The notes: generated by a model not told the origin, from the sequence alone. A stretch of 64,000 nt of DNA from an uncultured Alphaproteobacteria bacterium (GCA_943789475.1 CALSUG010000006.1:199425-263424), one strand, 5' to 3'. Numbered from the stretch's first letter, positions 6,552-63,469 are shown. Translations and numbers: made by a program.

Positions 6552-6643
6552 GTCAGAGAATTCCTAATAGCTAATTAATCGCCTCAGAGTATGGCGATAT
6601 AACCTTAATAATATCTTTATTTTAATAAATTGCAAAGATGCAT

Positions 6644-6670
6644 AAAAAAAACCGCCCTAAAGGACGGTTC
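6644..6670 (-). terminator. rho-independent terminator after tolC
   Basis: On the minus strand: AACCGUCC-UUUA-GGGCGGUU followed by U8. The stem is perfect on the minus strand (one G-U pair) but has a C-A mismatch on the plus strand. It lies 24 nt after the tolC stop. Confidence 0.6.
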
Positions 6671-6693
6671 ATTTTAAATACTTACATCTAGTT

Positions 6694-8043: not shown

Positions 8044-8090
8044 TCCTTAGACATTTGAACTTTATAAGTAATAAACACGTATATTTCACA

Positions 8091-8124
8091 AAAAGCAAGA
8101 GCGCAGTAACTTTTCTGCGCTCTT
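8091..8124 (-). terminator. rho-independent terminator after the adhesin gene
   Basis: 10-bp perfect stem AAGAGCGCAG / CTGCGCUCUU (8097-8106 / 8115-8124) with an 8-nt loop. On the minus strand it is followed by GCUUUUUG. Confidence 0.6.
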
Positions 8125-8143
8125 ATCCTTAGATTACAATACC

Positions 8144-25529: not shown

Positions 25530-25538
25530 GCCTGCCAT
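25530..25538 (+). repeat. right junction core (attR) CCTGCCATT
   Basis: Identical to 18765-18773. It is embedded in AATGGC-CT-GCCATT. Confidence 0.55.
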
Positions 25539-25695
25539 TCAGTCCATCAATCCATCCGACATAGAGAATACGACCTGACAAGCGCGGCATTCCGCGCGAT
25601 GTTGTCATGTGCATCAAGAGGTGACCCCGAGAGAATGTTGTAAAAAGGTGTTTTCTTACCCATTTTCTCTACGCGCAATATTCCACCCGCTGGTT
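25531..25695 (+). repeat. dispersed intergenic repeat, copy A (165 nt)
   Basis: 147/165 identical to copy C without gaps (hand alignment). GC hairpin GCGCGG-CATT-CCGCGC at 25581-25596. Confidence 0.85.
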
Positions 25696-25700
25696 TGCGT

Positions 25701-39605: not shown

Positions 39606-41038
39606 CAAACACCCCTATTATTGTTTGGTTTCGACAAGACTTACGCCTGCGCGATAATCCCGCTTTTATCGCGGCGGCTGAAACAGGACAACCCGTTTTA
39701 CCTATTTATATTTTAGATGATGAAAATGCAGGTGATTGGAAAATGGGCGCGGCAAGCCAATGGTGGCTCCATCACTCTTTAACATCTCTGAATAAAAATT
39801 TGGATGGTAATTTACGTGTATATCATGGTGATGCCTCAACAATTATTAGCGATATTATAACCGAAACAAAGGCAACTACGCTTTATTGGAATCGATGCTA
39901 TGAACCATGGCGGATAGCGCGTGATAAAGGCATTAAATCTTCTTTAAAGGATAAACATATTCATGTGCAAAGCTTTAATGGATCATTATTGTTTGAGCCA
40001 CATGCTGTTTTAAAAGAAGATGGCACGCCCTATAAAGTCTTTACGCCCTTTTACCGCAAAGGATGTTTGGAACGGAATGTAGAGCCTCCCAAACCACAAG
40101 ATACACCTGATGCAATCGAATACTATTACGCTACAAACAAAACACAAATTAGCGATTTAAAACTATTGCCAACGATCCCATGGGACACAACGATGCGTGA
40201 AGAATGGACAATTGGTGAGGACGGCGCGCAAAAACGTCTATCTGAGTTTTTAAATAATGGCCTAAATAATTATAAAGAAGGACGCAATCATCCTGCGCAA
40301 GACAATGTGTCGCGCTTGTCCCCTTATCTGCATTTTGGTGAGATCTCTCCGCGTGATATATGGCATGAGACCAAGGCGACAATGGTCGCCCAAGGATTAG
40401 AAAAAGACGGTGATCATTTTTTAAGCGAGATTGGCTGGCGCGAATTTTCGAATAATTTACTGTATCACTTCCCAGATTTACCACGAGAAAACTTACAAAA
40501 AAAATTCGATTATTTTCCATGGTGTGATGACCAAGAAGCATTGAAAGCATGGCAAACAGGACAGACAGGATATCCAATTGTTGATGCCGGTATGCGCGAG
40601 TTGTGGCAGACAGGGTACATGCATAACCGTGTCCGTATGATTGTTGGATCGTTTTTAGTCAAAAATCTGCTCCTCCACTGGCACCATGGCGAGAGTTGGT
40701 TCTGGGATACATTGGTGGATGCTGATTTGGCTAATAACAGCGCGTCTTGGCAATGGATCGCAGGATGTGGCGCTGACGCCGCGCCTTATTTCCGCGTTTT
40801 TAACCCCATAACACAGGGACAAAAATTTGATAAAGACGGAACATATATCCGAAAATATATTCCTGAAATCGCCGCCCTTCCTGAAAAATATCTGAATTGC
40901 CCTTGGGAAACCCCCCAAGACATACTTAATCATTGTGGTATTACATTAGGCAAGACTTACCCAAACCCCATTGTTGATTTAAAAGTGTCCCGTGAACAAG
41001 CGCTCAATGCCTTTCAATCAATTAAAGAGAATAGTTAG
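39602..41038 (+). CDS. phrB: deoxyribodipyrimidine (CPD) photolyase, class I
   Basis: MTNTPIIVWFRQDLRLRDNPAF, SRLSPYLHFGEIS, GWREF, TGYPIVDAGMREL..TGYMHNRVRMIV, DADLANNSASWQW and FRVFNP. Starts at the internal ATG at 39602. Confidence 0.9.
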   Translation: MTNTPIIVWFRQDLRLRDNPAFIAAAETGQPVLPIYILDDENAGDWKMGAASQWWLHHSLTSLNKNLDGNLRVYHGDASTIISDIITETKATTLYWNRCYEPWRIARDKGIKSSLKDKHIHVQSFNGSLLFEPHAVLKEDGTPYKVFTPFYRKGCLERNVEPPKPQDTPDAIEYYYATNKTQISDLKLLPTIPWDTTMREEWTIGEDGAQKRLSEFLNNGLNNYKEGRNHPAQDNVSRLSPYLHFGEISPRDIWHETKATMVAQGLEKDGDHFLSEIGWREFSNNLLYHFPDLPRENLQKKFDYFPWCDDQEALKAWQTGQTGYPIVDAGMRELWQTGYMHNRVRMIVGSFLVKNLLLHWHHGESWFWDTLVDADLANNSASWQWIAGCGADAAPYFRVFNPITQGQKFDKDGTYIRKYIPEIAALPEKYLNCPWETPQDILNHCGITLGKTYPNPIVDLKVSREQALNAFQSIKENS

Positions 41039-41043
41039 CGGCG

Positions 41044-41205
41044 GACTACAACCTCTGCCATTCAGTCCATTAATTTCATAAATTATCGATAATTACTCCG
41101 TGTGCCCCGCTTCACGCGGCGCTTGTTGATCTATTCCTTCTCGACGGATCACGGAGAACGAAATATATCACGCTATTTCACCCTTTTTCTCTACGCGAAA
41201 TAACT
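41044..41205 (+). repeat. dispersed intergenic repeat, copy B (diverged interior)
   Basis: Shares GACTACAACC-N-CTGCCATTCAGTCCAT at the 5' end and CACCC(T/A)TTTTCTCTACGCGAAAT at the 3' end with copies C/A. The interior differs but keeps a GC hairpin at 41104-41122. Confidence 0.7.
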
Positions 41206-46705: not shown

Positions 46706-47427
46706 CTATTCTTTATTATAGATTACTGGCATTTCACCTTTCCACTCTGACCATTTATTATTATCTGTAATCAACTCTGCCATAAAGTGACCTACGTTAA
46801 TACGGCTGGTTTTACCTGCATCAAAAATTGCATCTCTGATTGGTGATGAGTGCAGATCATATGCAGTAACGTCGGCACAATCAATCAAGCCATCTGGACG
46901 CACCACAACCCATTCAATGACCTCATCATTCTGCCCAATTTGAGTACGCAAATAATCAGCAGCTTCCTCATTATCCACATGTGGAGGAAGTAGTAAACGA
47001 AGAAGCCAAATTACACATTTATGACTGCAAGAAACTTCCTCATTCAAATCACGATTACGGTTTCCTGTTGTGTTCATAAGGACAAACTTGATTGCTTTTT
47101 TCGAATCGCTTGCCTTGACGGCATTACACAGTCTTCTCGTTGCATCTGTCACGAGTCTGCGTGGCGATCCAAACATTCCCTTAAAAGTTAAATTGTGGCC
47201 TAAGCATGATATCAACGCATCACAACCTTGCACATGCCCCTCCATTTCAATATCACTAAGCTCTAATATGCTTGCGTTATTAACAATAGATTTTCATGGT
47301 TCCTGATTTTTTCAGGAAGGCTATCCATTGATCGAACAACGGCTTTTACTTTTTGCCCTCGTCCAAGTAATTGCTCAACAAGCAAACGGCCTGTTGCACC
47401 GCTTGCACCTACCACAAGAACTGTCAT
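46706..47427 (-). pseudogene. NmrA/atypical-SDR NAD(P)H-binding protein, disrupted by a 1-nt frameshift
   Basis: The N-terminal frame reads MTVLVVGASGATGRLLVEQLL...ENLLLITQAY* (47427-47263). The C-terminal frame reads ..NNASILELSDIEMEGHVQGCDALISCLGH... (to 46706). The two frames can only be joined between 47263 and 47296. Confidence 0.65.
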
Positions 47428-47577
47428 CGTTTTCTTTCTATTTTATGATTATCCATTAGATATTATGGCATAATAACATGAAAATTCGACGCTCTTTGAA
47501 AACAATTAAAGTTGCCAACTTTATCGACAATGATTTTGCACTTGTAATGTACTAAAAATAGAGAAAATTTATTACCT

Positions 47578-47753
47578 GACTACAACCACTGCCATTCAGT
47601 CCACCAATCCATCCGACATAGAGAATACGACCTGACAAGCGCGGCTTTCCGCGTGGTGTTGCTATGCATGTCAAAAGGTGACGCCTAGAGAATGTTGTAG
47701 AAAGGTGTTTTCTCACCCATTTTCTCTACGCGAAATATTTCACCCTCTGGTTT
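47578..47753 (+). repeat. dispersed intergenic repeat, copy C
   Basis: See copy A. It includes the 10-nt upstream extension GACTACAACC shared with copy B. Confidence 0.85.
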
Positions 47754-48173
47754 TAAAGCATAAAAAATAATCATGAGACTGATATCTAATCAACTGTAAA
47801 AAACTAACTTTTCTCGACGCCCTACTCATACTCATCTTTCCTAGTGATAACTATCCTGAACCATATTTTTTAACCAGCCTACACTATAACGGGTGTCCAA
47901 TTTCCATCGAATTAACAATTTCTGACCACAGTACTTTGTGAACATATAATCCACAATATCGCTTCTTAATTAGCTCCCTAATTTCATCTAAGGAAGTTAT
48001 TCCACGAATGCCTTCCATCGTAATAAAGATAACTCTTATAGCACAACAAATTCATATAAATGATACGGGTGTTGGCAATACATTTTTGACATGTTAATTT
48101 TACATACTCAACATGATAGTATGCAGTATGAAAATAAAATTGACTCATATATTTTTATTTTCTATAAAAATAT

Positions 48174-48989
48174 ATGCAGCACTATAGTCGCCCTCATTTT
48201 TATTACAAACCTGATGATCAGAAGGCGGAACAATTTGCAAAAAAACTTGGTGAGGTTACTGGTGTATACGATCAAGAAAATTGTGATGTAATTGTTACTA
48301 TTCCTGGTGATGGCTCTGTTTACCATGCCTTTCATCATGCAGTGAACAAGCCGGTGTTTGCCGTCAAACCAACAACGAGTAATAGTGTTCTTTTTAGTGG
48401 ACATGAAAACATTGAAAATGGACTCCAGCTTAAAGAAGCTCTTACTAGTGCACACACGCACACCATTCACCCATTAAAAACAGACATCTACATGTCTGAT
48501 GGAACGATGACCCAAGTGTGGTCTTATGTTGATATCAACATTCGGTCAGACAACGCGCAAGCCACACTAATTCAAGAACATATTAATGATATTCCAAGCA
48601 CAGATAAACCTGTGATGGGAAGCGGTTGGATCGTTGCAACTCCTTTGGGATCAACGGCCCTTAATGAAACACGTGATGGAGAAGTGTTACCAATAGGAAC
48701 ACCATCAATCGTTCGTACAATGAATGGCGTGAGTAATTATTACGAACGACAGATGTTAAAAGAAAAAAATATGATCTCGGTTATAATTGGAGACAATTCG
48801 TTATTTCATATAAGAGTTGCGGCAAATCATGAAAAGCGAGCAACTGTTATTGATCATGATAGTTGGACATTCTCACCTAAAGACGGAACAAATATTGTCA
48901 ATGTCCGTGTAACAATCGATAAAGCACCTGAGCGTGCGCGAATATTATTGCTGAATACACGATACAGAACACCAAACCCATTTTTGTAA
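48174..48989 (+). CDS. divergent NAD kinase-like protein
   Basis: 271 aa with VIVTIPGDGSVYHAF (GGDGT-type motif) and WIVATPLGSTALNE (TPTGSTAY-type motif). Confidence 0.65.
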   Translation: MQHYSRPHFYYKPDDQKAEQFAKKLGEVTGVYDQENCDVIVTIPGDGSVYHAFHHAVNKPVFAVKPTTSNSVLFSGHENIENGLQLKEALTSAHTHTIHPLKTDIYMSDGTMTQVWSYVDINIRSDNAQATLIQEHINDIPSTDKPVMGSGWIVATPLGSTALNETRDGEVLPIGTPSIVRTMNGVSNYYERQMLKEKNMISVIIGDNSLFHIRVAANHEKRATVIDHDSWTFSPKDGTNIVNVRVTIDKAPERARILLLNTRYRTPNPFL

Positions 48990-49006
48990 TTTGATAGGAT
49001 ATTAAA

Positions 49007-51685
49007 ATGACACAATCAAAATTATCATTACGCGTAACGCAGGCATCCCTTAACCAAACTGCACTTGATTGGCCACAAAACATGGCCAACCATTATGCCG
49101 CAATTGATGTTGCCGTTGGTGAAGGCAGTGACATGGTTTTAATGCCAGAGTTGAGCATCACGGGTTACGAAGTGAATGATGATTTCCAACGCACAGATAA
49201 TAATCGTATTTATGATGCGTTATGTTCAGTTGCTGATTACGCTCATAGTAAAGATCCCAATCTTTTGGTGTCTGTTGGGAACCCATGGCGTGTTCAATTG
49301 CGTGAGGCGTTTGAGAGTGCTGCACCAAATCCTGATTTGATTAAAAATCCATTATATGACCGATTAAACCTTCCCTTTAATGTTCAAACCTTGATGGGGG
49401 GCGGGCGTATATTGGGCATGACGGCTAAGACAAATTTATTCCGTGATGAACGCGGTTATGAGAACCGTTATTTCAACGAATGGAGTTTTGCAGCAGCAGA
49501 AGAATTTGCGAAACTAATGGGTGTTCAAAGTACTTATGGAACATTGCCAATTCGATTACCAGGTCAAGAAATTATTCCGTTTGGTCTCCCTCTTTACTTT
49601 GTTCAAGATAAGAATGAGAGTGCTTATATTCATGTAACATCAATTTGCGAAACAAAATGGACTGCGACGAAATATGATGGTTACCCATATAATGATAGTC
49701 GTTATGAACAATTGAATATTATTCCTTCTACATCACGATGGTTGGGAACGAAATCAGGTATTTTACGGGAAATATCAAACGCAAGTCCGCCAACGCGTTT
49801 AAAGAACGATAAACATATGCATTTGAATGATCTGGCATCGCAATATGATGATGTTGTTATCGATACAGATGGTTTAGGGACAAGTGGTGCAACATTTTCA
49901 CAATATGGGCATCGCAATATTTCTCAGAACGGTAAGACTATTTCTGTTGGACAACGTATTACATTTGGTCAAGGTGCGACAACGACATCAACAATTCAAA
50001 TTAATAATGCTGATCTCGCATTAGAGGATAAAACGCATGTAACCATTACGCGTGATTTTAAAAATGTTAATGCACCACAGGAAGTGGGTTTTGCATGGAA
50101 CACGCATCAAGGTGCATGGGATCATCCTGAAAACTCAGATCGTTGGAAAGAAGAACATATTCGCAATCAAGCATTATGGATGTTTGATTATATGCACAAA
50201 ACGGGTGCGCGCGGAATTATGGAGGCGTTAAGTGGAGGAAAGGATTCTTCATTCAATTGTGCCATGGTGCGTGTGATGGTCGAATTGGCAATACATGATC
50301 TTGGTGTTGAAGGATTTTGTGAACAAATGTCACATCTTCCTTACAAAGATAAAATTTTGCAAGCCTATAATGGTGGCGGCAAAGAGGCCGCGATTGAGGT
50401 GTGTATGGATAACATGTTAACTGCTGTTTATATGGGTACGAATAACAGTTCGTTTGAAACGTGGAACGCCGCCAAAACACTAATTGACGGTGGTGAATTT
50501 GAAGATAGCGATAAATTTTTCAAAGGAATTGATGGTAAATTTGTTGAACGTAATGTTCAAGATTTATTAGATTTTTACGCATATATTTTTGCAGTTTCAA
50601 ATTCAACAGAAGTCCCTCGTGAAAAGAAATTGGAAGTGATGGAGGATTTGGCTGAATTTTTAAATGCTAATCCACATGACCATACGCCGGATGAAATGGA
50701 TGCGTGGGAAACACGCTTGTTCAAAAAATATCCAGAGGTTCAACAACTTGTCTCTGCAGCAAAACCCGGGCATGGTTTAGGATACGAAAATATTCAGGCT
50801 CGCGGACGTGAAGTTTTGATCATGTTGTTTGCCAATATCGAAGGGAAAATGCCTGTTGCTAATCCAAATTTGGATGAGGCCTATGGTGCGTATGCAACAT
50901 TTGGTGGTGATTTGCACAGTGGTACCGTGAATTGGAATGCTGGATTACACAAGGCTGATCAAGAAGCCTTAATGGAGTATTTAGAAGAAAAAGGTGTGCA
51001 GGGTGTTATGGATCGTATTGTTGCGCTTGCCCCTGCGAATAACAATCGTCCAAGCGCAGAACTCCAGCCGAAAAAAGATGGTGAAGTATCTCAATTTGAT
51101 GAAGACGCATTGCAAGGAACATTTCCGCAAAAAGCCGCATTGGCACGCTTGCGCCATCACACGAAAATACATACCGCCGATGGTTCACGTTGGATGAATG
51201 CGGGTGAATTATTTGATCGTGCACGCGAAGATAATTTATTTAATCCATTGGATGATAATCAGTTGTTCAACTCGGTTGCTTATTTTTACCAACGGTGGGA
51301 AGGGCCCGCGCAACACAAAATTCATGCAACACCACTTGCACCAACAATGGGTGAAAATGTTGATAAACAAACGTCTCTTCGTACACCGAATTTAAGCGGT
51401 GATAGCAAGGATGAAATTGTCGCGCTCGGGATTAATTTAATATTCAAATGGGCGGAGGAAGATAATATTTCCCTTGATGGATATGGTGATCTACATCGTC
51501 GTGCGTGGCAAGATAAAGCCTTTGCATCATCCTTCGTGAGTCATGCAAAAAATCAAGGTGATGATAAAGATGTCATGACGTATGACCTGCGCGCTTTATA
51601 CAACAAGGTTAAAGAAAACGGGTGGGATGGAACATTTCCTAAACCACAAACTACATATTCCCAAAAAACATGGAACATAGGATAA
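49007..51685 (+). CDS. nadE: glutamine-dependent NAD+ synthetase, unusually long (892 aa)
   Basis: N-terminal CN-hydrolase triad context (MPELSITGY; AKTNLFRDERGYENRYF; SICETKW). C-terminal PP-loop SGGKDSS, YENIQARGR and ATFGGDLHSG. Long insertions and a ~250-aa C-terminal extension. Confidence 0.8.
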   Translation: MTQSKLSLRVTQASLNQTALDWPQNMANHYAAIDVAVGEGSDMVLMPELSITGYEVNDDFQRTDNNRIYDALCSVADYAHSKDPNLLVSVGNPWRVQLREAFESAAPNPDLIKNPLYDRLNLPFNVQTLMGGGRILGMTAKTNLFRDERGYENRYFNEWSFAAAEEFAKLMGVQSTYGTLPIRLPGQEIIPFGLPLYFVQDKNESAYIHVTSICETKWTATKYDGYPYNDSRYEQLNIIPSTSRWLGTKSGILREISNASPPTRLKNDKHMHLNDLASQYDDVVIDTDGLGTSGATFSQYGHRNISQNGKTISVGQRITFGQGATTTSTIQINNADLALEDKTHVTITRDFKNVNAPQEVGFAWNTHQGAWDHPENSDRWKEEHIRNQALWMFDYMHKTGARGIMEALSGGKDSSFNCAMVRVMVELAIHDLGVEGFCEQMSHLPYKDKILQAYNGGGKEAAIEVCMDNMLTAVYMGTNNSSFETWNAAKTLIDGGEFEDSDKFFKGIDGKFVERNVQDLLDFYAYIFAVSNSTEVPREKKLEVMEDLAEFLNANPHDHTPDEMDAWETRLFKKYPEVQQLVSAAKPGHGLGYENIQARGREVLIMLFANIEGKMPVANPNLDEAYGAYATFGGDLHSGTVNWNAGLHKADQEALMEYLEEKGVQGVMDRIVALAPANNNRPSAELQPKKDGEVSQFDEDALQGTFPQKAALARLRHHTKIHTADGSRWMNAGELFDRAREDNLFNPLDDNQLFNSVAYFYQRWEGPAQHKIHATPLAPTMGENVDKQTSLRTPNLSGDSKDEIVALGINLIFKWAEEDNISLDGYGDLHRRAWQDKAFASSFVSHAKNQGDDKDVMTYDLRALYNKVKENGWDGTFPKPQTTYSQKTWNIG

Positions 51686-51688
51686 CAA

Positions 51689-52873
51689 ATGATAAAATAC
51701 AAAACGCCTATGGATGTATGGAAAGCATTATCATCTGTTTCAAAAGGTGCAGATAGAGCGGCAATTTTAAAAAATCATCATACTCGAAAGCTGGTTTTAA
51801 ATTCGGGGTCATTTGTTATTTTTTCAACAGGATTTATTGATAAAACTGGTAAAGATTTTAAATCAAAATTATCTAATATTCACTTACTTCAAACACAGCG
51901 CATTAGTCCCAAAGGCGGAAGTTTTGATGGCAAAGGAACATTCGGTGGAATGTCTGAGAGAACGTCTGATCAGGACTATGAAAAGCTTCGTAAAAAAGGT
52001 ATTTTCAATATAAATCTTGCTAATGATGTTTTTTCGAAAGATGACCTGATCTTATCTCCTGGTGGAAATGTTAAAAAAACATTTGATCTTGATGATATCG
52101 CGCGTGTTTCTGCAGCGCGCGAAACCATGGAAGAATTCATGGAATTGACGGCTGTGTCTGATATTTATAAAAAATTGGGTATAGAGCGAGATGGCTTAAG
52201 ATTTTCTTTTTCTTCTGCAGCATTAACACAAATTCCTCTGCAATATGTTCGTGATGACAATTACATTGTGAATCTGTGGTCTGGTGATCTTGAGTATAAA
52301 GCATATGCTATCACACCATTTGGGCATTTAGCATCTATCGACAGAGATGTTTTTGAACATGTTTTAAATGTTTCGCGAACAGGCAATAGTGCGCCTAAAA
52401 CAGGTCGTGAAATTTTGGATTTACAATCTGTTTCATTGTTTGACGCGTTGAAACAGTGGGGGAGATTTAATGAAGATGGATCTCGCGATCTATCACACGA
52501 TTATCGATATCCACACGAATGGATGGGGATGTGGCGTAAGGCCCAAATTGAACTTAATCTCCATTGTGGCGGCGGGGTAGGTCTCGGCGCTAGGGAGGTG
52601 CAGATGTGCAATTTAATTCATGAATTACAAGATTCAGCTATTGATGATGCTGTTGCTCAAGGAATGAATCCCCACCGCATTAATATCCTTGGTGCATTAA
52701 TAGAAATGAATGGTGGTAAAATAAACGACTTGAGTGAATTGGAAAAATTCGAAGAAGATTTTGATTTACCTCACTTAACATTCAAACACATGCAAGACAC
52801 GGTCGATAAAGTAATGACAGATAGAGGTTATACGCCCCCATCCAAAATTCAGAAATCGCATTTGACTATCTAG
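51689..52873 (+). CDS. hypothetical protein, third gene of the NAD operon (weak Nudix-like motif only)
   Basis: 394 aa, starting 3 nt after the nadE stop. FGGMSE...SAARETMEEFMEL loosely recalls a split Nudix box, but the canonical spacing is not met. Confidence 0.5.
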   Translation: MIKYKTPMDVWKALSSVSKGADRAAILKNHHTRKLVLNSGSFVIFSTGFIDKTGKDFKSKLSNIHLLQTQRISPKGGSFDGKGTFGGMSERTSDQDYEKLRKKGIFNINLANDVFSKDDLILSPGGNVKKTFDLDDIARVSAARETMEEFMELTAVSDIYKKLGIERDGLRFSFSSAALTQIPLQYVRDDNYIVNLWSGDLEYKAYAITPFGHLASIDRDVFEHVLNVSRTGNSAPKTGREILDLQSVSLFDALKQWGRFNEDGSRDLSHDYRYPHEWMGMWRKAQIELNLHCGGGVGLGAREVQMCNLIHELQDSAIDDAVAQGMNPHRINILGALIEMNGGKINDLSELEKFEEDFDLPHLTFKHMQDTVDKVMTDRGYTPPSKIQKSHLTI

Positions 52874-52875
52874 AT

Positions 52876-53604
52876 TTACCTAAGTGCTAAACCCTTTACT
52901 TTGCCTTTTGTAAGGCTTTGTTGAATTTGGTTATTTAGCACACCTAATGCATGTTTGTTTTTCGTAACGATTAACGCAGTATACGGTTTTTGATCTCGTT
53001 CATAATCAAATCGATTGATGTCTGTACCAGCCTCTTGAGCGATCAATAATCCCGCGGCAATATCATATTCAGCGGCAGTGATATCCGCGGCTTTACCTAC
53101 ATTCATTCTTTTTTTAACAATTTCATGTGTTTTATTCGTTAATGAAACGCGGTTTTTTGCAAGTGTCACCATCTTTTGCGCTATCGCAACATCTATATAC
53201 GCCTTTTTTGTTTGTGCCAGAGTTGATTGAACACTCGCTAACGCTTTTTGAGCAACATATTGCACCTCTAAATCTGCAACGCGTTCTCGTTTTGAACGCT
53301 TGCCGGCGACCTCAATTTCCTGTTCAAAACCCAGCGTATATTCTGCACCGTCAAATCCACTAAGCGTGCCATTCCCCCCAAAATTTTCGACTTCAAATAC
53401 AATTTCTGGATTTGGTGAAAGTGATTGTTGTGTGTAATTTCCTGACACCGATTCTATGCTTGCTATATGAGATTGTACTTGCGGATTTGTATCTAATACA
53501 GATTGATATGCATCTTCTAAACTTAATATATTTTCTGCCTGCACTTGGGTCGAGATAAGCACTGCCACCATTAGTACAGGAAGAATTTTTCTTCCTTTTA
53601 ACAT
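52876..53604 (-). pseudogene. chimeric ORF: CzcC/TolC-family N-terminal ~175 aa fused to inositol-monophosphatase-family C-terminal ~60 aa
   Basis: The N-terminus has a signal peptide plus LSLEDAYQSVLDTNPQVQ...AGKRSKR (outer-membrane efflux factor). The C-terminus EYDIAAGLLIAQEAGTDINRFD matches the WDxAAGxxxxxEAGG motif of IMPase/SuhB. The junction is near 53060-53080. Confidence 0.55.
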
Positions 53605-54976: not shown

Positions 54977-57181
54977 TTATACAAATTTGGGTAATGAAAA
55001 GTTTTTCCAAAGTGACTTGTAATCTGACTTACCTACAAAATGGCCGATCAGGGTACAGATTGGTTTAAATGTTGCAGTTAAAACAACTCCCCTCCAATCG
55101 CCTTTTTTACGATACCCCATAGTGTATGCGTTTTGATGTACCCATCCCTCAACTAAAACATTGAAAATTATTTTTTCACGTAATGATCCCTTATGTTTGC
55201 GTAAATATTTTACCAAAGGAATCGCCCATGCATGATAACCGTTAAGCGTTTCTGGCTTTAAGCGATCTCGACCAAATTTTGTGTTTCCAACATAATCACG
55301 TTTATCAAGCCAACCACGCTCTATTGTGAAATATGTACACAAAACAGTGCCACCGCCACCGCCACCGCCACCGCCGCCGCCGCCGCCGCTAGGACCGTTA
55401 CATGATCCACAACTTCCCTCAACGCTAGTTCCATTAGTGTGTCCATCTTGGCGGGCGTCGTGATTGCTTCTGTAATCTCCTCGACCGTCACCATCAACGT
55501 CAACAGATTCTGGTCCACCACCACCGTTATTACCACCGCCGCCACAATTTGATCGAGCCCCTTGATTTACCCAATTTCCCCATCCGGGTATTTCTCCTGG
55601 CTCTGTGCTAGTTCGCGTTCTTGTTTTTGCAGGTTGAGAACATGTGGCCGCTTGTGTTTCTTGAAAAGTACAATTCATACTACCTCTTTGTGCCCATCGA
55701 CCATCATATTCACTATGATTTGGTGTTAGATTTTGAACATCAGTCCAACCACTAACGACACTTCTTCGCTCATAAGTCACACCATTATTTGTTGTGAGCT
55801 CTCCCCCAAGATCAGGGAACATTTGGTTACAAGTGAAGTGAAGTGTATTAGGTCTAGAACATTCGATACTTACACCTTCATGAGAAACCACTTCAACTTC
55901 ATCTGTTTGTGATCCTGTTTCTCCACCATAATCATTCATTACTTCATAAAAACGAGAAATCTTTTTAAGTGTAATTTCGCCTGTCATTTCACCATATGAA
56001 AGAGATCCTTGTTTGTTATCCAAAGCGTTGTGAACACCTGTAAAATCATTGTGTGAAACATTGATAGTAACTGTACCGGCTGTATCAGGTTGCGCAGGAC
56101 AGGCCTGAACAATGATGTTTTCTTCTTCGCGAAGAAGACGACGTTCTTCAGCACTCATGCCTTCAAGCAGGTCTAACGCACCAGCGTCTTCACACGTATC
56201 AAACTCATCGTTATCTTCGCCTTTTTCAGGATCTTCTTTTTTATTAACATCCTTACACTCAAGATCATTTAAGTTAGAACGTAATGTGTTGGCAATACCA
56301 CCTGATGATATACCAGATAATGACGCCATGTTTACCGCATCAGCTGTACTGGCAGAAACAACACGTGTAACGCTTTCGTTTAATGCAATACACTCATTTG
56401 AAATTTCACTCCATGTTAAAGAATTATCAGCAATAACTTCCGTTTCACTATCAAATCCACGACCTTGAACAACAATATCGCCAGCTGCGGTAAATGAAGC
56501 ATCAACACGTTGTAAAATACCACCTTCTTGATCTGCACCACATGAGGCAGCGCGTGTAATAAATTTTTCTTGTGTTTGTGTTACTTGGACAGGGGCAGGT
56601 ATGCGAATGGCCGCAACGGCTGATCCTTCTGGAATGTTAATTGTACTACATCCACCGCTCAGCGATAATGTACTTGCTCCATCATTAATCGCGATAGATG
56701 AACCTGTCATCACACCAAAATTTTGATTGGGAATAATGTCTTTAATTTTTAATGACACAAGACCTGATTGCTTCGCACCAAGCCCTTTAAGGAATAGATC
56801 ACCATCACTATCTTGTTTATCAAACCATGTGAGGTGATATGCATCGCCACTAATATTACAATGAGCACTTTGAATATAGCTTTCTGCTTGTCCTAAGTTA
56901 AGAGATCCAAATTGTGCTTCGGATAAATCTAGAGATCCTTCTGGAAGTAATTGTGCTTGCCATGCAGTCGAATTAACCACGGCATTTAAGGCTTGATTAG
57001 AATAATGTTCAAAAGCCTGAGCATATGATGTGGCCATCGCCTCAACACGTTTAACGTCTTGTTCTTGACTGGCAACTTCATCTTCTGGAACACAAGCGGA
57101 AAGAACAAGAGCGCTCGCCCCCATCAATAAAACACCACTTAATCCATTCATATTAATAACTTTTTTACTCATCTCAATCAT
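54977..57181 (-). CDS. large lipoprotein with DxDxDG-like acidic motif, poly-Gly tract and basic C-terminal domain
   Basis: 734 aa with lipobox LVLSAC, DVDGDGRGDY, a G13 run, then CTYFTIERGWLD...GYHAWAIPLVKYL. Unknown family. Confidence 0.65.
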   Translation of the reverse strand: MIEMSKKVINMNGLSGVLLMGASALVLSACVPEDEVASQEQDVKRVEAMATSYAQAFEHYSNQALNAVVNSTAWQAQLLPEGSLDLSEAQFGSLNLGQAESYIQSAHCNISGDAYHLTWFDKQDSDGDLFLKGLGAKQSGLVSLKIKDIIPNQNFGVMTGSSIAINDGASTLSLSGGCSTINIPEGSAVAAIRIPAPVQVTQTQEKFITRAASCGADQEGGILQRVDASFTAAGDIVVQGRGFDSETEVIADNSLTWSEISNECIALNESVTRVVSASTADAVNMASLSGISSGGIANTLRSNLNDLECKDVNKKEDPEKGEDNDEFDTCEDAGALDLLEGMSAEERRLLREEENIIVQACPAQPDTAGTVTINVSHNDFTGVHNALDNKQGSLSYGEMTGEITLKKISRFYEVMNDYGGETGSQTDEVEVVSHEGVSIECSRPNTLHFTCNQMFPDLGGELTTNNGVTYERRSVVSGWTDVQNLTPNHSEYDGRWAQRGSMNCTFQETQAATCSQPAKTRTRTSTEPGEIPGWGNWVNQGARSNCGGGGNNGGGGPESVDVDGDGRGDYRSNHDARQDGHTNGTSVEGSCGSCNGPSGGGGGGGGGGGGGTVLCTYFTIERGWLDKRDYVGNTKFGRDRLKPETLNGYHAWAIPLVKYLRKHKGSLREKIIFNVLVEGWVHQNAYTMGYRKKGDWRGVVLTATFKPICTLIGHFVGKSDYKSLWKNFSLPKFV
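55349..55387 (-). repeat. coding microsatellite (GGC)5(GGT-GGC)4, 13 consecutive Gly codons
   Basis: The plus strand reads gcc acc gcc acc gcc acc gcc acc gcc gcc gcc gcc gcc. Confidence 0.9.
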
Positions 57182-58600: not shown

Positions 58601-61600
58601 TTAATCAATCAAACAAGTTGTTTCACTTGAATTCCAAACCAGGCAAGATGCCGAAGAAGTAGATATTTGCAAATCTTCTAATTCATTTTTTTTCTGTTTA
58701 TTTTTCTTTTTGGAAGGTTTAGATACTTTGTTCTCAACAAATGTTGCCACATAATTATCTATATTATTATCTGGAACACCGGCAGCGGGGCCATTTTCAA
58801 ATATAAATTTATTATCTGTTCCCGTTACGGATGCAGGTGAGAGGTTTGCATGTGTTTCATGGTAAACCTCTGTTCCAATCAAACCATTAGGAGAAAAATC
58901 CAAATAATTCTTCGCATAAATTAAGAACCGACCGCTATCTGAATCAATGGCTGATGCACCAACATTGTTAACAAGATCACCTTCAATATTTAAAATAACG
59001 GTACTACCAGATCCTGATCCTGTAACAGCTCCACTGTTCAACACTATATCTCCTTGTGTACTCTCTAGATACACTACACCTCCACCAGTCAAACCATTAT
59101 CTACCGTTATAGTGCCTCCGAAGACACTCAAATCATATCCAGATGGAGAAACGTCAACATTATCTATATTAACAACACTTGTCGTTTCATCTTCACCAAT
59201 ACGCAGCTCGTTAACAGCAGAAAAACGATTGATATCTGTATTATCAAGAACCAACGTTCCTGCTCCAGATCCTAAACCAACTGTTGCTCCGACTGTTCTT
59301 GTTAGAAGGGTTAAATTATTCCCTGATGAGATGGTCGGTGTATTAAAAAAATCATAACTATCTGCGTTTAGCTTTATATTCGCGTTCGTTGTTGACACCT
59401 CCCCGTCACTCATAAAAATATCATCATTGTTTGAACCTGATCCTCGCCCCTCACCTGTAATGTTGATTTCACCGTCAACAGAGGTTACTTGCGTTCCAAC
59501 TTGTCTAATGTGAACACCGTGGTTAGAATTTGTTCCTTCTCCACCGACACCACTAATCACGATTGTTGCCGCATCTGTCCCTGTTCCTGTGGAAGATATT
59601 GCGGCACTATCGTTTATATAAACACCAAAATTTTCGTGGTCCGCTCCACTACTATTCCCCTCACCTACAATTGAAATATTCCCATCTACAGACGTTATCG
59701 TGGTTCCAGCCCCCTTAACATTAATACCAAAATTAGATCTACTTCCATGTCCTGCCGTTCCATTCAAAGTGATTGTTGCCGCATCTGCCCCCGTCCCCGT
59801 AGAAATAACATCTACTCCACGACTAAGAAATATTCCAACATTATTTTGACCTGCAACGTTTCCACCATTACCTGTGATTAGAATATCCCCATCTACCGAG
59901 GTTATCCGCGCATCATTTACGGCATTTATACCATGATTATATTGACTTCCTAATGCACCCGTACCAGTCAAAGTAATTTTTCCAGCATTCACCCCAACAC
60001 CTGTTGATAAAATTTTAGCGCTGTTAGAAAATTGAATTCCTACGTTTGACTGATCCGTACCATCACTTCCCCCTAAACCTGTAATCTGCAAATTTCCATC
60101 CACGACAGAGATTGTTGCGCTACTCCTACTATAATATCCAATATTACCTCGCCCACCAGCACCCCCAGTTGCATTGATGGTAATATCCGCGGCATTAACA
60201 CCCGTTCCTGTAGAAATAATGTCCGCGCCATTTTCTGTGTATAAACCATAATTACTATCACCACCGCTACCGTCACTTCCGCCAAGGGCCGTGATATTTA
60301 TATCACCTACAATAGAATTAATAATTGTATTACCATCAGTTAAATAAACACCATGATTTTGCGTTGTACCATTTCCACCTGTACCGTTTATTGTAATTTC
60401 TGAAGCATCTGAGCTTGTTCCTACCGATGATACTTCGGCGTTAGATGCCACTATAATACCGTAATTTTGGCCACCACTTCCATGACCACCCTGACCTATG
60501 ATCTCAACATTACCAGCAACCGATGTTATTTGCGTTCCTGTATCTTCAACACGCACTCCATAATTAAGACTATCTCCATTCGCTCCTGTACCGTTTATTG
60601 TAATTTTAGCAGCATTTACGCCAGTACCAGTTGATGCAATATCAGCATCAACTTCTATAAAAGTACCATAATTATAATTGCTTCCTGCTGCTCCATTGGA
60701 GCCACCTTGACCAGTGATATTAACATCACCATCAATTGAAGTGATTAAAGAACCTCCATTTGTATGTCTTATTCCATGGTTGTAATCACCGCCAGCGCCA
60801 CCAGTACCATCCAGTGTTATTTTCGCGGCATTTACACCTGTTCCCGTTGAGGTTATATCGGCGTCACCCATCAAAGTAATACCGTAATTCTGCGCACTCA
60901 CATCCGCTCCATTAGAGCCACCTTGACCAGTGATATTAACATCACCATCAATTGAAGTAATTAAGCTACCCGCATCATCAACACGAACACCGTGATTGTT
61001 ATCTTCACCAGCACCACCAGTACCATCCAGTGTTATTTTTGCGGCATTTGCACCTACTCCTGTTGAACTTATATTCGCTCCCGAGACAACACTAATCCCA
61101 TAGTTGTTGGCACTTCCTGCCGCTCCGTTGGATCCACCTTGGCCCGTAATATCAATATTCCCCTCTACAGATGTAAGAGATGCGCTATTTAAAGTAACCC
61201 CAACACCTCCACCTTGAGCTAAAGCTCCCGTACCATCCAGTGTTATTTTTGCGGCGTTCACACCCGTACCAGTTGAACTTATGTCTGTTCCTGATATAAG
61301 GTTAATCCCCACATTACCCGACGTTCCTACCGTCCCAAAAGAACCTGCTTGACCAACAAAATCAATGTCTCCATCAACGGAGGTTATTGTTAAATCTCGA
61401 CCATAAACCCCATAATTGTTATCTTCTCCAACGCCACCAGTCCCGTTAAAATTTAAAGTTGCTGCATTGACACCAGCTCCGGTTGAGGAAATAGTTGTAT
61501 CTTGGAGATATATACCAATATTACTATCGCTTCCCGCAACACCAGTCGTGCCACCTTGACCAGTGATATTAATATTACCTTCCGCCGAGGTAATGTCTGC

Positions 61601-63469
61601 CCCTCTTATATAAACACCTCGGTTATCATCTATACCATTACCACCAATACCATCCAATGTTATAGATCCAGTTGTTGACTGTATTGTTGATCCGCCACTA
61701 TAGCTAATACCATCTTGAGCTGATAACCCCGCATTATCTTGTCCATGGCCTTTAATACTTACATTTCCAGTCCCCGTAGAAATATTCGCCGAATTAAATC
61801 GAACACCATCGTCATTACTGGCTGTTCCATAAGCATAATCTGTCAGTGGATTTAGCCCACCACCAGCAACAAAATCACCGCCATTTGTTGTAATGTTGGC
61901 TATATTTACAAAAATAGATCCCGCATTATTGTTATCTGCATCTGAATTTAAAATAACATCCATCTCACCAGAGGTTGATGTAATATCCGCATTAACAAAA
62001 ATACTGTTATGTGCCTTTAATGTTAAAGATGCATCACCACCGGCTGTTTTTTCAATCTCGTCATCAACTGTAATATCACCATCTTGAGTATTCGCACCTG
62101 ATGCAGTCGTTTGAATAGTAACAGATGTCCCTCCATTCAACGCGGCCTCAATACTTGCCGTTGTTACATAAGCATCATCATCTGTTGAATCAAAATTTGG
62201 CCCACCCGTTACATTTGTATCAGGCGCTGAATCACGAATTATTATATTATTTGGGTCAAGCAACCACTGCCCCGCTTTACCATTTTCAGCTGAAGCGTTC
62301 ACAGATCCAGTAGACGTTAGTACTTTTTTACCAGATGTTTCAACAAGACCACCGTCACCACCGTTAGATCCACCTTTAGCTTCGATAGATCCCTTAAATA
62401 CTGTGGTATCATCCGACCAAACAATCACTTTACCGCCATCACCAGCATCTGTGGCGTTAGACGTTATTTTTGCGGCTTCAGAAACTGTTACAGTCTGAGA
62501 AGTTTTGGCATCACCTTTTCCTTGGTAATCACCACCAACCAATATATCACCACCACCTGACTTACCTGTGGCATTCAATGTTCCTGTCACATTCACATTA
62601 CCACCACCAAGTACAATTTTACCACCAACCTGAGTGATCGATGACACATCGACAATACCGTCCATATTAATAATATTGCTCACCACGTCATCAACCTGAG
62701 GAACAGATAACTGAACATGTCCTCCTCGCGCGCTGATAAGGCCGCTATTACTGATCAAGGCCTGTGACATTTCATCATCAACCGCAACCTCCACCAATCC
62801 ATCGCCATACAGATCTAATGTCGCGGTACTACCTGCGGACAAAGAAATGCGTCCCATTTTCGCAGTAATTACACCTCTATTATCAATAGTTGGTGCAACA
62901 AAGGCAGCCAATCCAGCCTCACCAACAGTTATTGTTCCACGATTGACAATTGAACCACCTGTATCGACATTAGTGATATTAATTTGACTATCACCATTCA
63001 TAAATTGTTGGTTATTAATATCGCCTGTTGTTGCAACAATGCCATTCACATCGATCTGAGAATTTTGACCAAAAATAATTCCATTACCATCCAAGATCAT
63101 CACCTGGCCATTAGATTTTAAATTTCCTAAAATCTGAGTTGGGTTGGATGCCTCGCCGACAACACGGTTAACAGCAATCGAGCTAGAACTAGGTTGAAAA
63201 AATTCTGTAGTCGCATCAACACCAATATTAAAACTATCCCAATTAATAACCGCACGGTCCGTTCCTTGGTGAATATTTAATCTATTATTATCAATATATT
63301 CTAAATTAATGGAGCCACCAACGACAGTACCATTTGTTGGTAATGTCGTGTTATCAAAGGCATTTGCTGTGCTCATAACAAAAAATGATGTGCTCAAAGC
63401 TAACGCTTTCCACAACGATTTTTTGTTATGTGATTTTTTTTTACATTCTTTTTTATGCATACATATCAA
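58601..63469 (-). CDS. two-partner secretion exoprotein (TpsA, filamentous-haemagglutinin family)
   Basis: 1622 aa with an extended signal peptide. TPS domain: NGTVVGGSINL...GTDRAVINWDSFNIG...QPSSSSIAVNRV...ILGNLKSNGQVMILDGNGIIFG. At least 10 tandem 72-aa beta-helix repeats (VNAAKITLDGTGG...ITSIDGDVNITGQGGSNGA). Confidence 0.9.
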   Translation of the reverse strand: MICMHKKECKKKSHNKKSLWKALALSTSFFVMSTANAFDNTTLPTNGTVVGGSINLEYIDNNRLNIHQGTDRAVINWDSFNIGVDATTEFFQPSSSSIAVNRVVGEASNPTQILGNLKSNGQVMILDGNGIIFGQNSQIDVNGIVATTGDINNQQFMNGDSQINITNVDTGGSIVNRGTITVGEAGLAAFVAPTIDNRGVITAKMGRISLSAGSTATLDLYGDGLVEVAVDDEMSQALISNSGLISARGGHVQLSVPQVDDVVSNIINMDGIVDVSSITQVGGKIVLGGGNVNVTGTLNATGKSGGGDILVGGDYQGKGDAKTSQTVTVSEAAKITSNATDAGDGGKVIVWSDDTTVFKGSIEAKGGSNGGDGGLVETSGKKVLTSTGSVNASAENGKAGQWLLDPNNIIIRDSAPDTNVTGGPNFDSTDDDAYVTTASIEAALNGGTSVTIQTTASGANTQDGDITVDDEIEKTAGGDASLTLKAHNSIFVNADITSTSGEMDVILNSDADNNNAGSIFVNIANITTNGGDFVAGGGLNPLTDYAYGTASNDDGVRFNSANISTGTGNVSIKGHGQDNAGLSAQDGISYSGGSTIQSTTGSITLDGIGGNGIDDNRGVYIRGADITSAEGNINITGQGGTTGVAGSDSNIGIYLQDTTISSTGAGVNAATLNFNGTGGVGEDNNYGVYGRDLTITSVDGDIDFVGQAGSFGTVGTSGNVGINLISGTDISSTGTGVNAAKITLDGTGALAQGGGVGVTLNSASLTSVEGNIDITGQGGSNGAAGSANNYGISVVSGANISSTGVGANAAKITLDGTGGAGEDNNHGVRVDDAGSLITSIDGDVNITGQGGSNGADVSAQNYGITLMGDADITSTGTGVNAAKITLDGTGGAGGDYNHGIRHTNGGSLITSIDGDVNITGQGGSNGAAGSNYNYGTFIEVDADIASTGTGVNAAKITINGTGANGDSLNYGVRVEDTGTQITSVAGNVEIIGQGGHGSGGQNYGIIVASNAEVSSVGTSSDASEITINGTGGNGTTQNHGVYLTDGNTIINSIVGDINITALGGSDGSGGDSNYGLYTENGADIISTGTGVNAADITINATGGAGGRGNIGYYSRSSATISVVDGNLQITGLGGSDGTDQSNVGIQFSNSAKILSTGVGVNAGKITLTGTGALGSQYNHGINAVNDARITSVDGDILITGNGGNVAGQNNVGIFLSRGVDVISTGTGADAATITLNGTAGHGSRSNFGINVKGAGTTITSVDGNISIVGEGNSSGADHENFGVYINDSAAISSTGTGTDAATIVISGVGGEGTNSNHGVHIRQVGTQVTSVDGEINITGEGRGSGSNNDDIFMSDGEVSTTNANIKLNADSYDFFNTPTISSGNNLTLLTRTVGATVGLGSGAGTLVLDNTDINRFSAVNELRIGEDETTSVVNIDNVDVSPSGYDLSVFGGTITVDNGLTGGGVVYLESTQGDIVLNSGAVTGSGSGSTVILNIEGDLVNNVGASAIDSDSGRFLIYAKNYLDFSPNGLIGTEVYHETHANLSPASVTGTDNKFIFENGPAAGVPDNNIDNYVATFVENKVSKPSKKKNKQKKNELEDLQISTSSASCLVWNSSETTCLID

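Follow-up and report, generated by a model that had tools for sequence, protein, structure and literature searches.

Three neighboring genes for putative NAD enzymes in an uncultured alphaproteobacterium are hemmed in by a repeat, a broken gene and a chimeric reading frame, raising the question of whether they were brought in as an accessory module or are a remnant of the lineage's own NAD metabolism. They lie within a 64,000-nt stretch of DNA, the whole of which was analyzed and is referred to here as the window. A preliminary description of this sequence had favored an inserted module over a core locus.

Gene order and signals at the locus

The three genes are co-directional on the plus strand and lie 17 and 3 nt apart, with open reading frames (ORFs) of 271, 892 and 394 aa, as had been described; we call their products NadK-like, NadE-long and the orphan. 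The trio arrangement was identical in four independent assemblies (100% nucleotide identity, all ORFs intact) and is therefore not an assembly artifact. Ribosome-binding sites were kept and spacing was tight. On the left, all the features reported earlier, namely the repeat, the decayed gene and the AT-rich DNA, were present. From left to right, the features were:

46706-47245 and 47263-47427: split NmrA-like/NAD(P)H-binding gene of the left flank
47560-47608: second repeat piece, similar to 41026-41074
47589-47753: repeat of 165 nt, 89% identical to 25532-25696
47754-48173: AT-rich spacer of 420 nt, GC 30.5% versus 39.2% for the whole window
48113-48140, plus strand: candidate sigma-70-like promoter within the AT-rich spacer, 34 nt 5' of the NadK-like gene
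48174-48989, plus strand: NadK-like gene, 271 aa, first of the operon
48990-49006, plus strand: NadK-like/NadE spacer of 17 nt with an AGGA ribosome-binding site
49007-51685, plus strand: NadE-long gene, 892 aa
51689-52873, plus strand: orphan (type-A Nudix-fold) gene, 394 aa
52876-53604, minus strand: chimeric ORF, ending 2 nt from the orphan stop codon
52876-53082, minus strand: IMPase-fusion remnant forming the 3' end of the chimera, the last 68 codons of a 733-aa gene
52903-52916, plus strand: candidate terminator-like hairpin, 30 nt past the orphan stop codon
53083-53604, minus strand: 5' part of an efflux gene of the outer membrane (OEP/CzcC-IhpA-like), joined in frame to the IMPase remnant

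Both the promoter and the hairpin came from consensus scans and are weak candidates: the promoter matched 9 of 12 positions, such sites being fewer than shuffled sequences predict, and the count of terminator-like hairpins was not above shuffle expectation. An Rfam scan found no NAD riboswitch.

Three divergent protein families

The product of the first gene had been described as kinase-like, and it matched NAD kinase models only. The best of these was PRK04761 (E 2.4e-20), at 72.8 bits against a cutoff of 211 bits; likewise, all nine members of the family matched NAD kinase models alone and none reached the curated cutoff. No Pfam match was found, and alignment to NADK1 of L. monocytogenes (PDB 2i1w) gave an E value of 0.01. 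Like the short alphaproteobacterial NAD kinases (PRK04761, 257 aa) and NADK1, which are of similar length, NadK-like has a G-D-G catalytic motif, a TPxGSTAxN motif and a collinear alignment over ~210 residues, but it differs from them in having GSG for GDG before the TP motif. The two motifs noted earlier were both present, as PGDGS and TPLGSTAL; the latter is part of TPLGSTALN, a version of glycine-rich motif II, (S/T)P(T/S)GSTAY(N/S), that aligned to TPSGTTAYN of NADK1. Residues G45-D46-G47, S160 and N164 were invariant across nine homologs. At the GGDG position, which most relatives retain, the first glycine is replaced by proline in the window, and the substrate-contacting NE/ND motif, kept as NE or ND in distant relatives (L011, L002 and L015), reads V-D-I in the window sub-clade, with the acidic residue kept and the asparagine lost. 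By its sequence, NadK-like appears to be a divergent member of the NAD kinase family, and the proline and the lost asparagine make an altered substrate specificity possible.

The second gene was identified as that of a glutamine-dependent NAD synthetase, with both domains, the catalytic motifs and a NadE fold in the predicted model. Pfam NAD_synthase scored 35.5 bits (cutoff 21), CN_hydrolase scored 22.3 bits, slightly below its cutoff of 23.2, and the NCBIfam models PRK13981 (80.7 versus 479) and PRK02628 (78 versus 473) both fell short of their cutoffs. PDB sequence searches matched synthetases of Cytophaga hutchinsonii (3ilv, 1e-23) and human NADSYN1 (6ofb, 1e-15). The Glu-Lys-Cys triad and SGGKDS motif reported previously were borne out across 28 family members, in which E48/K141/C214 and S409-G-G-x-D-S414 were invariant, the PP-loop of NadE-long itself being S409-G-G-K-D-S414. 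The AF2 model (pLDDT 88.5) matched 6ofb (Foldseek E 7e-35, TM 0.81) and 3ilv (TM 0.89), and with these synthetases NadE-long shares the CN-hydrolase glutaminase, the PP-loop synthetase and the overall fold, although sequence identity is only ~19%. It also exceeds 3ilv in length by ~258 aa, which fall in the glutaminase domain (~100), in the middle of the synthetase domain (~60) and at the C terminus (~100) and are all predicted to be folded. Every member of the family had this extra length, those in complete operons included. The dN/dS ratio of NadE-long against its counterpart in the sister locus L003 was 0.12, a value that mostly reflects history preceding the deletions described below. The subfamily, of ~880-900 aa, was found only in metagenome-assembled genomes (MAGs) of Micavibrio-like Alphaproteobacteria; labels of the ~58 loci recovered were nearly all Micavibrio, Pseudobdellovibrionaceae, Bdellovibrionales or Alphaproteobacteria.

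A split Nudix-like signature had been suspected in the third protein, and we found both the GG...RExxEE pattern and a predicted Nudix fold. The orphan had no match in Pfam, NCBIfam, PHROGs, PADLOC or PDB sequence searches, its family profiles A2 (16 sequences) and A5 (34 sequences) matched nothing in PDB, and Pfam NUDIX did not match 16 family members even at E<=10. Top Foldseek matches of its AF2 model (pLDDT 77.5, pTM 0.81) in PDB and BFVD were almost all Nudix hydrolases, with probability ~1.0, target TM ~0.5 and E values of just ~1e-3, and the predicted fold matched those of NUDT16/X29 and NUDT9 (ADP-ribose, IDP and NAD-cap pyrophosphatases). The box is split into G86-G87...E90 and R144-E145-x-x-E148-E149, and G81, G86, G87, R144, E145, E148, E149 and E241 were invariant in 34 sequences, so that the RExxEE helix and the preceding glycines are shared with Nudix enzymes. 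In contrast to these, the orphan has an interrupted box, in which a variable insert of ~35-60 aa between the halves departs from the canonical spacing GX5EX7REUXEEXGU; it has an extra C-terminal helical domain (~120 aa in the model); and it has no detectable sequence homology to Pfam NUDIX or to PDB Nudix proteins. The model thus points to a very divergent Nudix-fold family, and the family is rare, with 87 representatives among 1.84 billion proteins. Its long members were checked for fusion partners, and one carried an epimerase domain while the rest were without matches.

The orphan (type A) lay directly 3' of NadE in the window and in L004, L001, L090 and L089. In the last of these, an NrtR-associated pncB-nadE operon encodes a NadE of the short, single-domain type, whose stop codon is overlapped by the gene for a homolog 32% identical to the orphan; in L088, a distant homolog had no adjacent NAD genes. 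The same post-nadE slot was occupied in L003, L005, L011 and L018 by a different gene, type B, encoding a NUDT9-like ADP-ribose pyrophosphatase (1q33, 1e-10). Homology to NUDT9 or to NUDT9-H of TRPM2 was not found in the orphan (hhalign of profile A2 against the type-B family, probability 0.3%), and any deep homology between the two occupants of the slot would be hypothetical. A 406-aa gene in L003 matches the orphan in position but is only 26% identical to it and belongs to type B.

The operon in relatives and its deletions in the window

In Micavibrio-like MAGs, NadE-long was usually set in a Preiss-Handler operon (prs, pncB, pncA, nadE), and pncB-pncA or prs adjoined it in about half of the ~58 loci. 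In the sub-clade of the window, a NadK-like gene also belonged to the operon, nadE was followed by a Nudix-type gene, and a nadD-fusion/IMPase-fusion pair was present; homologs of NadK-like held the same first position in seven other genomes. Gene orders in relatives included the following:

L004: nadK-like > U396 > pncA > nadE > type A, facing IMPase733 and the nadD-fusion
L003: pncB stub > pncA > nadE > type B, facing IMPase733 and the nadD-fusion
L014: nadK-like > pncB > pncA > nadE > nadD-fusion > IMPase
L001 and L002: nadD, with prs / nadK-like / pncB or U395 / pncA / nadE on the other strand

Two genes stood between nadK-like and nadE in L004, L014, L001, L002, L011, L015 and L005, and in both L003 and L004 the IMPase733 gene was followed by the nadD-fusion gene, whose product in relatives was identified as NadD (1kam, 3.5e-12). 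In L001 and L004, a 396-aa gene, U396, takes the place of pncB. It had no Pfam or PDB match, even as a profile; its RLDTHGG and GVGTGS motifs are similar to those of type II phosphoribosyltransferases, which gives a lead only.

Operons of this kind are documented as nadD<>pncA-pncB-nadE in Pseudomonas, as pncB-nadD-nrtR-nadE in cyanobacteria and as prs-linked salvage operons (Rodionov et al. 2008, PMC2330246), and the relatives share with them the genes pncA, pncB, nadD, nadE and prs, arranged as one transcription unit or as two divergent ones. The Micavibrio-like lineage differs in placing nadK-like first and a Nudix-type gene after nadE, and in encoding NadD and IMPase as long fusion proteins, and the window differs again in retaining just nadK-like, nadE and the Nudix-fold gene. 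A search of the literature for a Micavibrio NAD operon found nothing relevant.

The NaAD-producing genes pncB, pncA and nadD, which adjoin nadE in relatives, were missing here. By tblastn, the only operon genes in the window were the trio and a 68-aa IMPase tail; pncA and pncB were absent from the whole 64 kb, as was nadD, so that the window encodes no NaAD-forming enzyme and NadE-long is without a locally encoded source of NaAD. The right flank is, as the preliminary description had it, a deletion scar, formed by a true OEP'-'IMPase chimera. Its N-terminal ~174 aa matched OEP/TolC-CzcC-like models (Pfam OEP over residues 29-174, 3.5e-12; NCBIfam IhpA, 1.3e-16), and this efflux part marks the far edge of the deletion, outside the NAD system. 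The IMPase part aligned by tblastn to residues 666-733 of IMPase733 (84% identity in L003, 62% in L004) and contains the IMPase motif EYDIAAGLLIAQEAG; the 68-codon tail is a remnant of the operon's convergent partner. On the other side of nadE, the 17-nt spacer resembles the nadK>pncB spacer of L014 and is probably the junction of a deletion that removed pncB (or U396) together with pncA. The sister locus L003 bears a different scar, a 40-codon pncB stub.

Origin and function of the trio

The position of the trio beside a dispersed repeat and scars could suggest arrival on a mobile element, and one earlier proposal was that it replenishes NAD against NAD-depleting immunity or toxins, by analogy with the phage NAD reconstitution pathways (NARP). 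The likeness lies only in outcome, in that NARP pathways rebuild NAD from its breakdown products and the ancestral operon would do so from nicotinamide and possibly ADP-ribose. The proposal fails on components, since NARP1 (Adps and Namat), NARP2 (Nampt and Nmnat) and NARP3 (PnuC and a NadR-like protein) use other enzymes, none of which is encoded in the window. NARP systems are phage-borne, whereas the trio locus is chromosomal and found lineage-wide, and relatives of the NadE-long family and the orphan were absent from IMG/VR, INPHARED and PLSDB beyond ordinary distant nadE. PADLOC had no match for the trio, GC and GC3 were host-like, and no integrase, transposase or att-like features were found at its borders. 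A mobile, NARP-like module is therefore highly improbable, and the claim of insertion gives way to one of descent: the scars reflect loss of the partners pncB/pncA, the nadD-fusion and the IMPase-fusion. Of the three hypotheses proposed earlier, the closest was that these are simply the lineage's own nadE and nadK.

We consider it likely that Micavibrio-like Alphaproteobacteria inherited, by vertical descent, a chromosomal operon for salvaging and recycling NAD(P), and that the trio is the core of it that survives in this genome. This reading builds on what the sequences show: family- or fold-level gene identities, conserved catalytic motifs, the deletions, and the place of these genes in the operons of relatives. 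Judging from relatives, the ancestral operon would have run nadK-like > pncB or U396 > pncA > nadE-long > Nudix-type gene, flanked by fusion genes for a NadD-type NaMN adenylyltransferase and an IMPase domain and often by a prs-like gene, and would have served the Preiss-Handler route from nicotinamide through nicotinate, NaMN and NaAD to NAD and then NADP. In this genome, one deletion excised pncB/pncA, probably leaving the 17-nt spacer, and another took nadD together with most of the IMPase gene, of which 68 codons survive as a stub fused to the efflux-protein gene. NaAD is the predicted substrate of NadE-long because the operons of relatives hold a NadD-type adenylyltransferase; the enzyme would most likely amidate it to NAD with ammonia that its own glutaminase domain supplies through a channel. 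NadK-like would most likely phosphorylate NAD to NADP, and the orphan would most likely hydrolyze an NAD-derived pyrophosphate, ADP-ribose being the best candidate, a step that would put the ADP-ribose half of spent NAD back into use. The missing steps would presumably be supplied elsewhere in the genome or by uptake. On the opposite side of the balance, the pathway is incomplete unless uptake or gene copies elsewhere make up for the losses, curated equivalog cutoffs lie far above the scores of NadK-like and NadE-long, and sequence comparison ties the orphan neither to Nudix families nor to type B.

If the trio is such a core, the scars, repeats and divergent enzymes at this locus record the erosion of a native operon, not the gain of an anti-defense or accessory module. 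Current curated models overlook or only just pick up the three sequence families brought together at the locus: a glutamine-dependent NadE subfamily of ~890 aa restricted to Micavibrio-like bacteria, a divergent NadK subfamily set within a salvage operon, and a rare Nudix-fold family that accompanies NAD synthetase. Sister genomes have undergone independent deletions, and two unrelated Nudix-type genes alternate in one slot; together these amount to a small natural experiment on the dismantling and rewiring of NAD salvage in a lineage that is uncultured and probably lives as a predator or depends on a host. Known NAD biology is not overturned; the metabolism would be ordinary and the sequences unusual.

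Erosion could have gone further, to a broken pathway in which three useless ORFs are becoming pseudogenes. Such a relic would fit three decay events in 7 kb (the NmrA-like gene is split, an OEP'-'IMPase chimera has formed and pncB/pncA are gone), the independent erosion of L003 and the lack of an NaAD-forming enzyme in the window. Against it, none of the three ORFs is truncated or has lost an invariant catalytic residue of its family, their ribosome-binding sites and tight spacing are preserved, and the arrangement is fixed across the four assemblies. NadK, moreover, is needed even by NAD-importing bacteria such as Chlamydia, and we regard decay as unlikely. There is still less to recommend a self-sufficient minimal module in which the divergent kinase and long synthetase act on other substrates, for instance by converting NaAD to NaADP and NADP (a route proposed earlier, for which the sequence offered no support), NaMN to NMN as in Francisella, or imported prey or host deamido-NAD. 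Both enzymes fall far below equivalog cutoffs, the sub-clade has PGDGS for GGDG and has lost the asparagine of the NE motif, NadE-long carries ~258 extra folded residues, and the trio persists without nadD, pncA and pncB; however, relatives hold the same proteins in complete Preiss-Handler operons with a NadD-type, NaMN-specific adenylyltransferase, the extra length of NadE extends to members in those operons, and nothing points positively to another substrate. The orphan might, alternatively, be a non-enzymatic partner of NadE, either a Nudix-derived, NrtR-like regulator or an effector-binding regulatory subunit. For a long time, NrtR proteins were wrongly annotated as ADPR pyrophosphatases (PMC2330246), and such a role would suit a Nudix-like domain with a helical C-terminal domain that is tightly coupled to nadE, to the point of overlap in L089. 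Yet RExxEE and GG are the most conserved positions of the family, as expected of a metal-dependent hydrolase, no WHD_NrtR or HTH Pfam domain was matched in 16 members, L089 carries a genuine NrtR beside its orphan homolog, and no NrtR structure was among the top 50 Foldseek matches, making this very unlikely.

Beside the preferred reading of a salvage core, there is an outside chance that the trio is a self-sufficient module working on deamido-NAD, NAD or ADP-ribose imported from prey or host, with type A as a new NadE-coupled enzyme family acting on a novel Nudix substrate. Type A would then be translationally coupled to NadE, and it alternates in its slot with the NUDT9-like ADPRase.

The locus and its flanks

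The preliminary description of three co-directional genes with 17- and 3-nt gaps, bordered by a repeat, a decayed gene, an AT-rich spacer and a czcC'-'IMPase chimera, was borne out by ORF coordinates, repeat comparison, GC content and domain matches.

Features of the trio locus (window positions)
46706-47245 and 47263-47427, - strand: NmrA-like NAD(P)H-binding gene, broken into 179-aa and 54-aa pieces
47560-47753: copy of a dispersed intergenic repeat in the spacer upstream of the trio (165-nt part 47589-47753); other copies 25532-25696 and 41026-41074
48174-48989, + strand: NadK-like ORF, 271 aa
49007-51685, + strand: NadE-long ORF, 892 aa, 17 nt after the NadK-like ORF
51689-52873, + strand: orphan ORF, 394 aa, 3 nt after the NadE-long ORF
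52876-53604, - strand: chimeric ORF, ending 2 nt from the orphan stop

The split NmrA-like gene immediately left of the trio is a pseudogene and was found in all population copies. The left flank also holds a 420-nt spacer at 30.5% GC and the 165-nt repeat, which was 89% identical to 25532-25696, with an adjoining piece similar to 41026-41074. This repeat (~165-190 nt, 80-89% identity) occurred in at least three copies or part-copies within the window. To the right, the ORF at 52876-53604 is a genuine chimera, in which a ~174-aa OEP/CzcC-IhpA-like N-terminus continues in frame into an IMPase-family C-terminus. As the complete arrangement was 100% identical across four independent assemblies, it represents a real genotype. 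Base composition of the trio (GC 0.397, GC3 0.29-0.31) matched that of the window (0.392) and neighbouring genes (0.25-0.39).

The three proteins

NadE-long matched NAD_synthase, CN_hydrolase, 3ilv and human NADSYN1, and its triad Glu48-Lys141-Cys214 and PP-loop S409-G-G-x-D-S414 were invariant in 28 family members. Its AlphaFold model (pLDDT 88.5, pTM 0.89) superposed on 6ofb and 3ilv with TM scores of 0.81 and 0.89, differing from 3ilv by ~258 additional residues in three regions that are predicted to be folded. The dN/dS of NadE between the window and its closest relative (L003, NadE 89% identical) was 0.12. More than 100 relatives of ~880-900 aa were found, those from named genomes almost only in MAGs labelled Micavibrio, Pseudobdellovibrionaceae, Bdellovibrionales or Alphaproteobacteria, a mixture largely due to NCBI placing Micavibrio under Bdellovibrionales. 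Several Micavibrio-like genomes carried two paralogs (L039 and L042 on one chromosome, OZ257145.1; L033/L038; L028/L056; L055/L061): one, extended at its N-terminus to ~1180 aa, came behind pncB and a ~394-aa pncA-like gene, and the other, of ~885 aa, adjoined a prs-like gene.

NAD kinase models were the sole matches of the NadK-like protein, the best being PRK04761 (E 2.4e-20; 72.8 bits against a 211-bit cutoff); a Pfam search gave no match. G-D-G and the Ser and Asn of TPxGSTAxN were invariant across nine homologs. More distant members kept the canonical GGDG and NE/ND motifs; in the window's sub-clade PGDGS was present and the Asn of the NE motif was gone.

The orphan had no match in Pfam, NCBIfam, PHROGs, PADLOC or PDB sequences, and sequence-profile searches established no link between it and known Nudix families. 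Its structural model (pLDDT 77.5, pTM 0.81) matched almost only Nudix hydrolases in two libraries (NUDT16/X29, NUDT9, TRPM2 NUDT9-H and viral Nudix proteins), with probabilities of ~1.0 and E-values of only ~1e-3. Residues G81, G86, G87, R144, E145, E148, E149, E241 and L254, invariant in 34 family sequences with identities down to 22%, form a Nudix box interrupted by a variable insert. The predicted fold points to a new Nudix-fold family, and a rare one (87 representatives in 1.84 billion proteins).

In relatives, the slot after nadE was occupied by either of two sequence-unrelated families that alternated over the NadE tree: that of the window orphan (type A; also L004, L001 and L090), or a clear homolog of NUDT9 and TRPM2 NUDT9-H of the ADP-ribose pyrophosphatase type (type B; 1q33, 1e-10). 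Though both are Nudix-type, hhalign found no similarity between them.

Type B genes in relatives
L003, 4768-5988
L011, 12678-13898
L018, 6177-7403
L005, 7614-9989: fused to a ~385-aa N-terminal domain bearing a DAGRDHDDE motif

In locus L089, NadE was short and single-domain (278 aa), and its stop codon was overlapped by the start of a type-A homolog (32% identity). The association of type A with NAD synthetase therefore extends over two NadE architectures. There (3525-9137), an NrtR gene lay divergently upstream of a 211-aa gene, followed by pncB, the short NadE and the type-A homolog; the NrtR upstream of this pncB-nadE operon is genuine. A distant homolog (L088) was located elsewhere, beside ribulose-phosphate 3-epimerase. 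The orphan is most economically read as a pyrophosphatase whose substrate is ADP-ribose or a related dinucleotide derived from NAD; ADP-ribose itself is a tentative choice, at somewhat under even chances and less secure than the overall reading of the trio.

An NAD operon in relatives and its erosion

Gene context in relatives decided the interpretation of the trio. About half of ~58 NadE-long loci had either pncB-pncA immediately before nadE or a prs-like neighbour, and the operon was larger in the sub-clade nearest the window.

Gene order in relatives (NadE identity to the window)
L004 (80%): nadK-like, U396, pncA, nadE, type-A orphan; facing a 733-aa IMPase fusion and a ~400-440-aa nadD fusion
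L014 (72%): nadK-like, pncB, pncA, nadE, nadD fusion, IMPase fusion
L001, L002 (~53%): nadD on one strand; prs, nadK-like, pncB or U395, pncA, nadE on the other
Conserved, operon-linked nadD fusion/IMPase fusion pair: L004 7808-10009 and 10006-11325; L003 5991-9508; L014 12809-16281
U396 (395-396 aa) in the slot of PncB: L004 1925-3115; L001 8074-9261

The operon-linked adenylyltransferase was of the NaMN-specific NadD type (1kam, 3.5e-12), which points to the canonical route from NaMN through NaAD to NAD; Preiss-Handler-type salvage operons of such make-up are well documented (PMC2330246). It carried a ~240-aa C-terminal extension with a weak MazG-like signal. Its partner (733-747 aa) had a C-terminal IMPase domain behind an N-terminal half of ~450 aa, and is possibly an NADP phosphatase. 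U396 had no Pfam or PDB match, profile search included, and could be a phosphoribosyltransferase, either non-orthologous or diverged to an extreme degree.

Searching the window with all partner proteins (tblastn) recovered the three genes and residues 666-733 of the IMPase fusion only, the latter matching L003 at 84% identity over window positions 53082-52879; pncA, pncB, U396, prs and nadD were absent from the 64 kb. The 17-nt spacer between nadK and nadE occupies the place of two genes in relatives and resembles the nadK-pncB spacer of L014. L003 lacked the nadK-like gene and bore a different, independent deletion scar: of pncB, just the last ~40 codons were left (1261-1392) immediately before pncA, with 73-79% identity to the intact protein. 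Since the scars differ, erosion of the operon has been recurrent in this sub-lineage.

The trio is thus probably what remains of a native operon for NAD salvage and NADP formation, a real locus, ordinary in kind, with unusually divergent family members. Of the earlier proposals, the lineage's own nadE and nadK fitted best, not simply in an odd place but as survivors of an operon; that the trio is a non-functional relic is unlikely. A minimal module for an altered or non-standard substrate draws on the divergence of the enzymes from curated models and the changed kinase motifs, which leave that unsupported proposal some room, and we consider it rather improbable. A regulatory role for the orphan is less probable again. 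Least credible is a mobile or phage-like module countering NAD depletion: the enzymes of NARP1 (Adps and Namat), NARP2 (Nampt and Nmnat) and NARP3 (PnuC and NadR-like) are unlike those of the trio, viral contigs, phages and plasmids yielded no relatives beyond ordinary distant nadE, and PADLOC gave no match.

Other features of the window

8144-15595, - strand: giant repeat protein, a 2483-aa ORF of ~735-nt tandem units, in which a segment of 300 nt is duplicated at 100% identity
41347-45431, - strand: signalling cluster of an H-NOX (HNOB) protein, a PAS/HisKA/receiver/Hpt hybrid kinase and a sigma-54 activator, the last broken into two ORFs in one population assembly (L083)
54977-57181, - strand: protein of 734 aa containing many cysteines and long stretches of poly-glycine, without a Pfam match in the precomputed annotation of population contigs
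58601-63469, - strand: giant repeat protein, a 1622-aa two-partner-secretion (TPS-domain) exoprotein with 216-nt repeats
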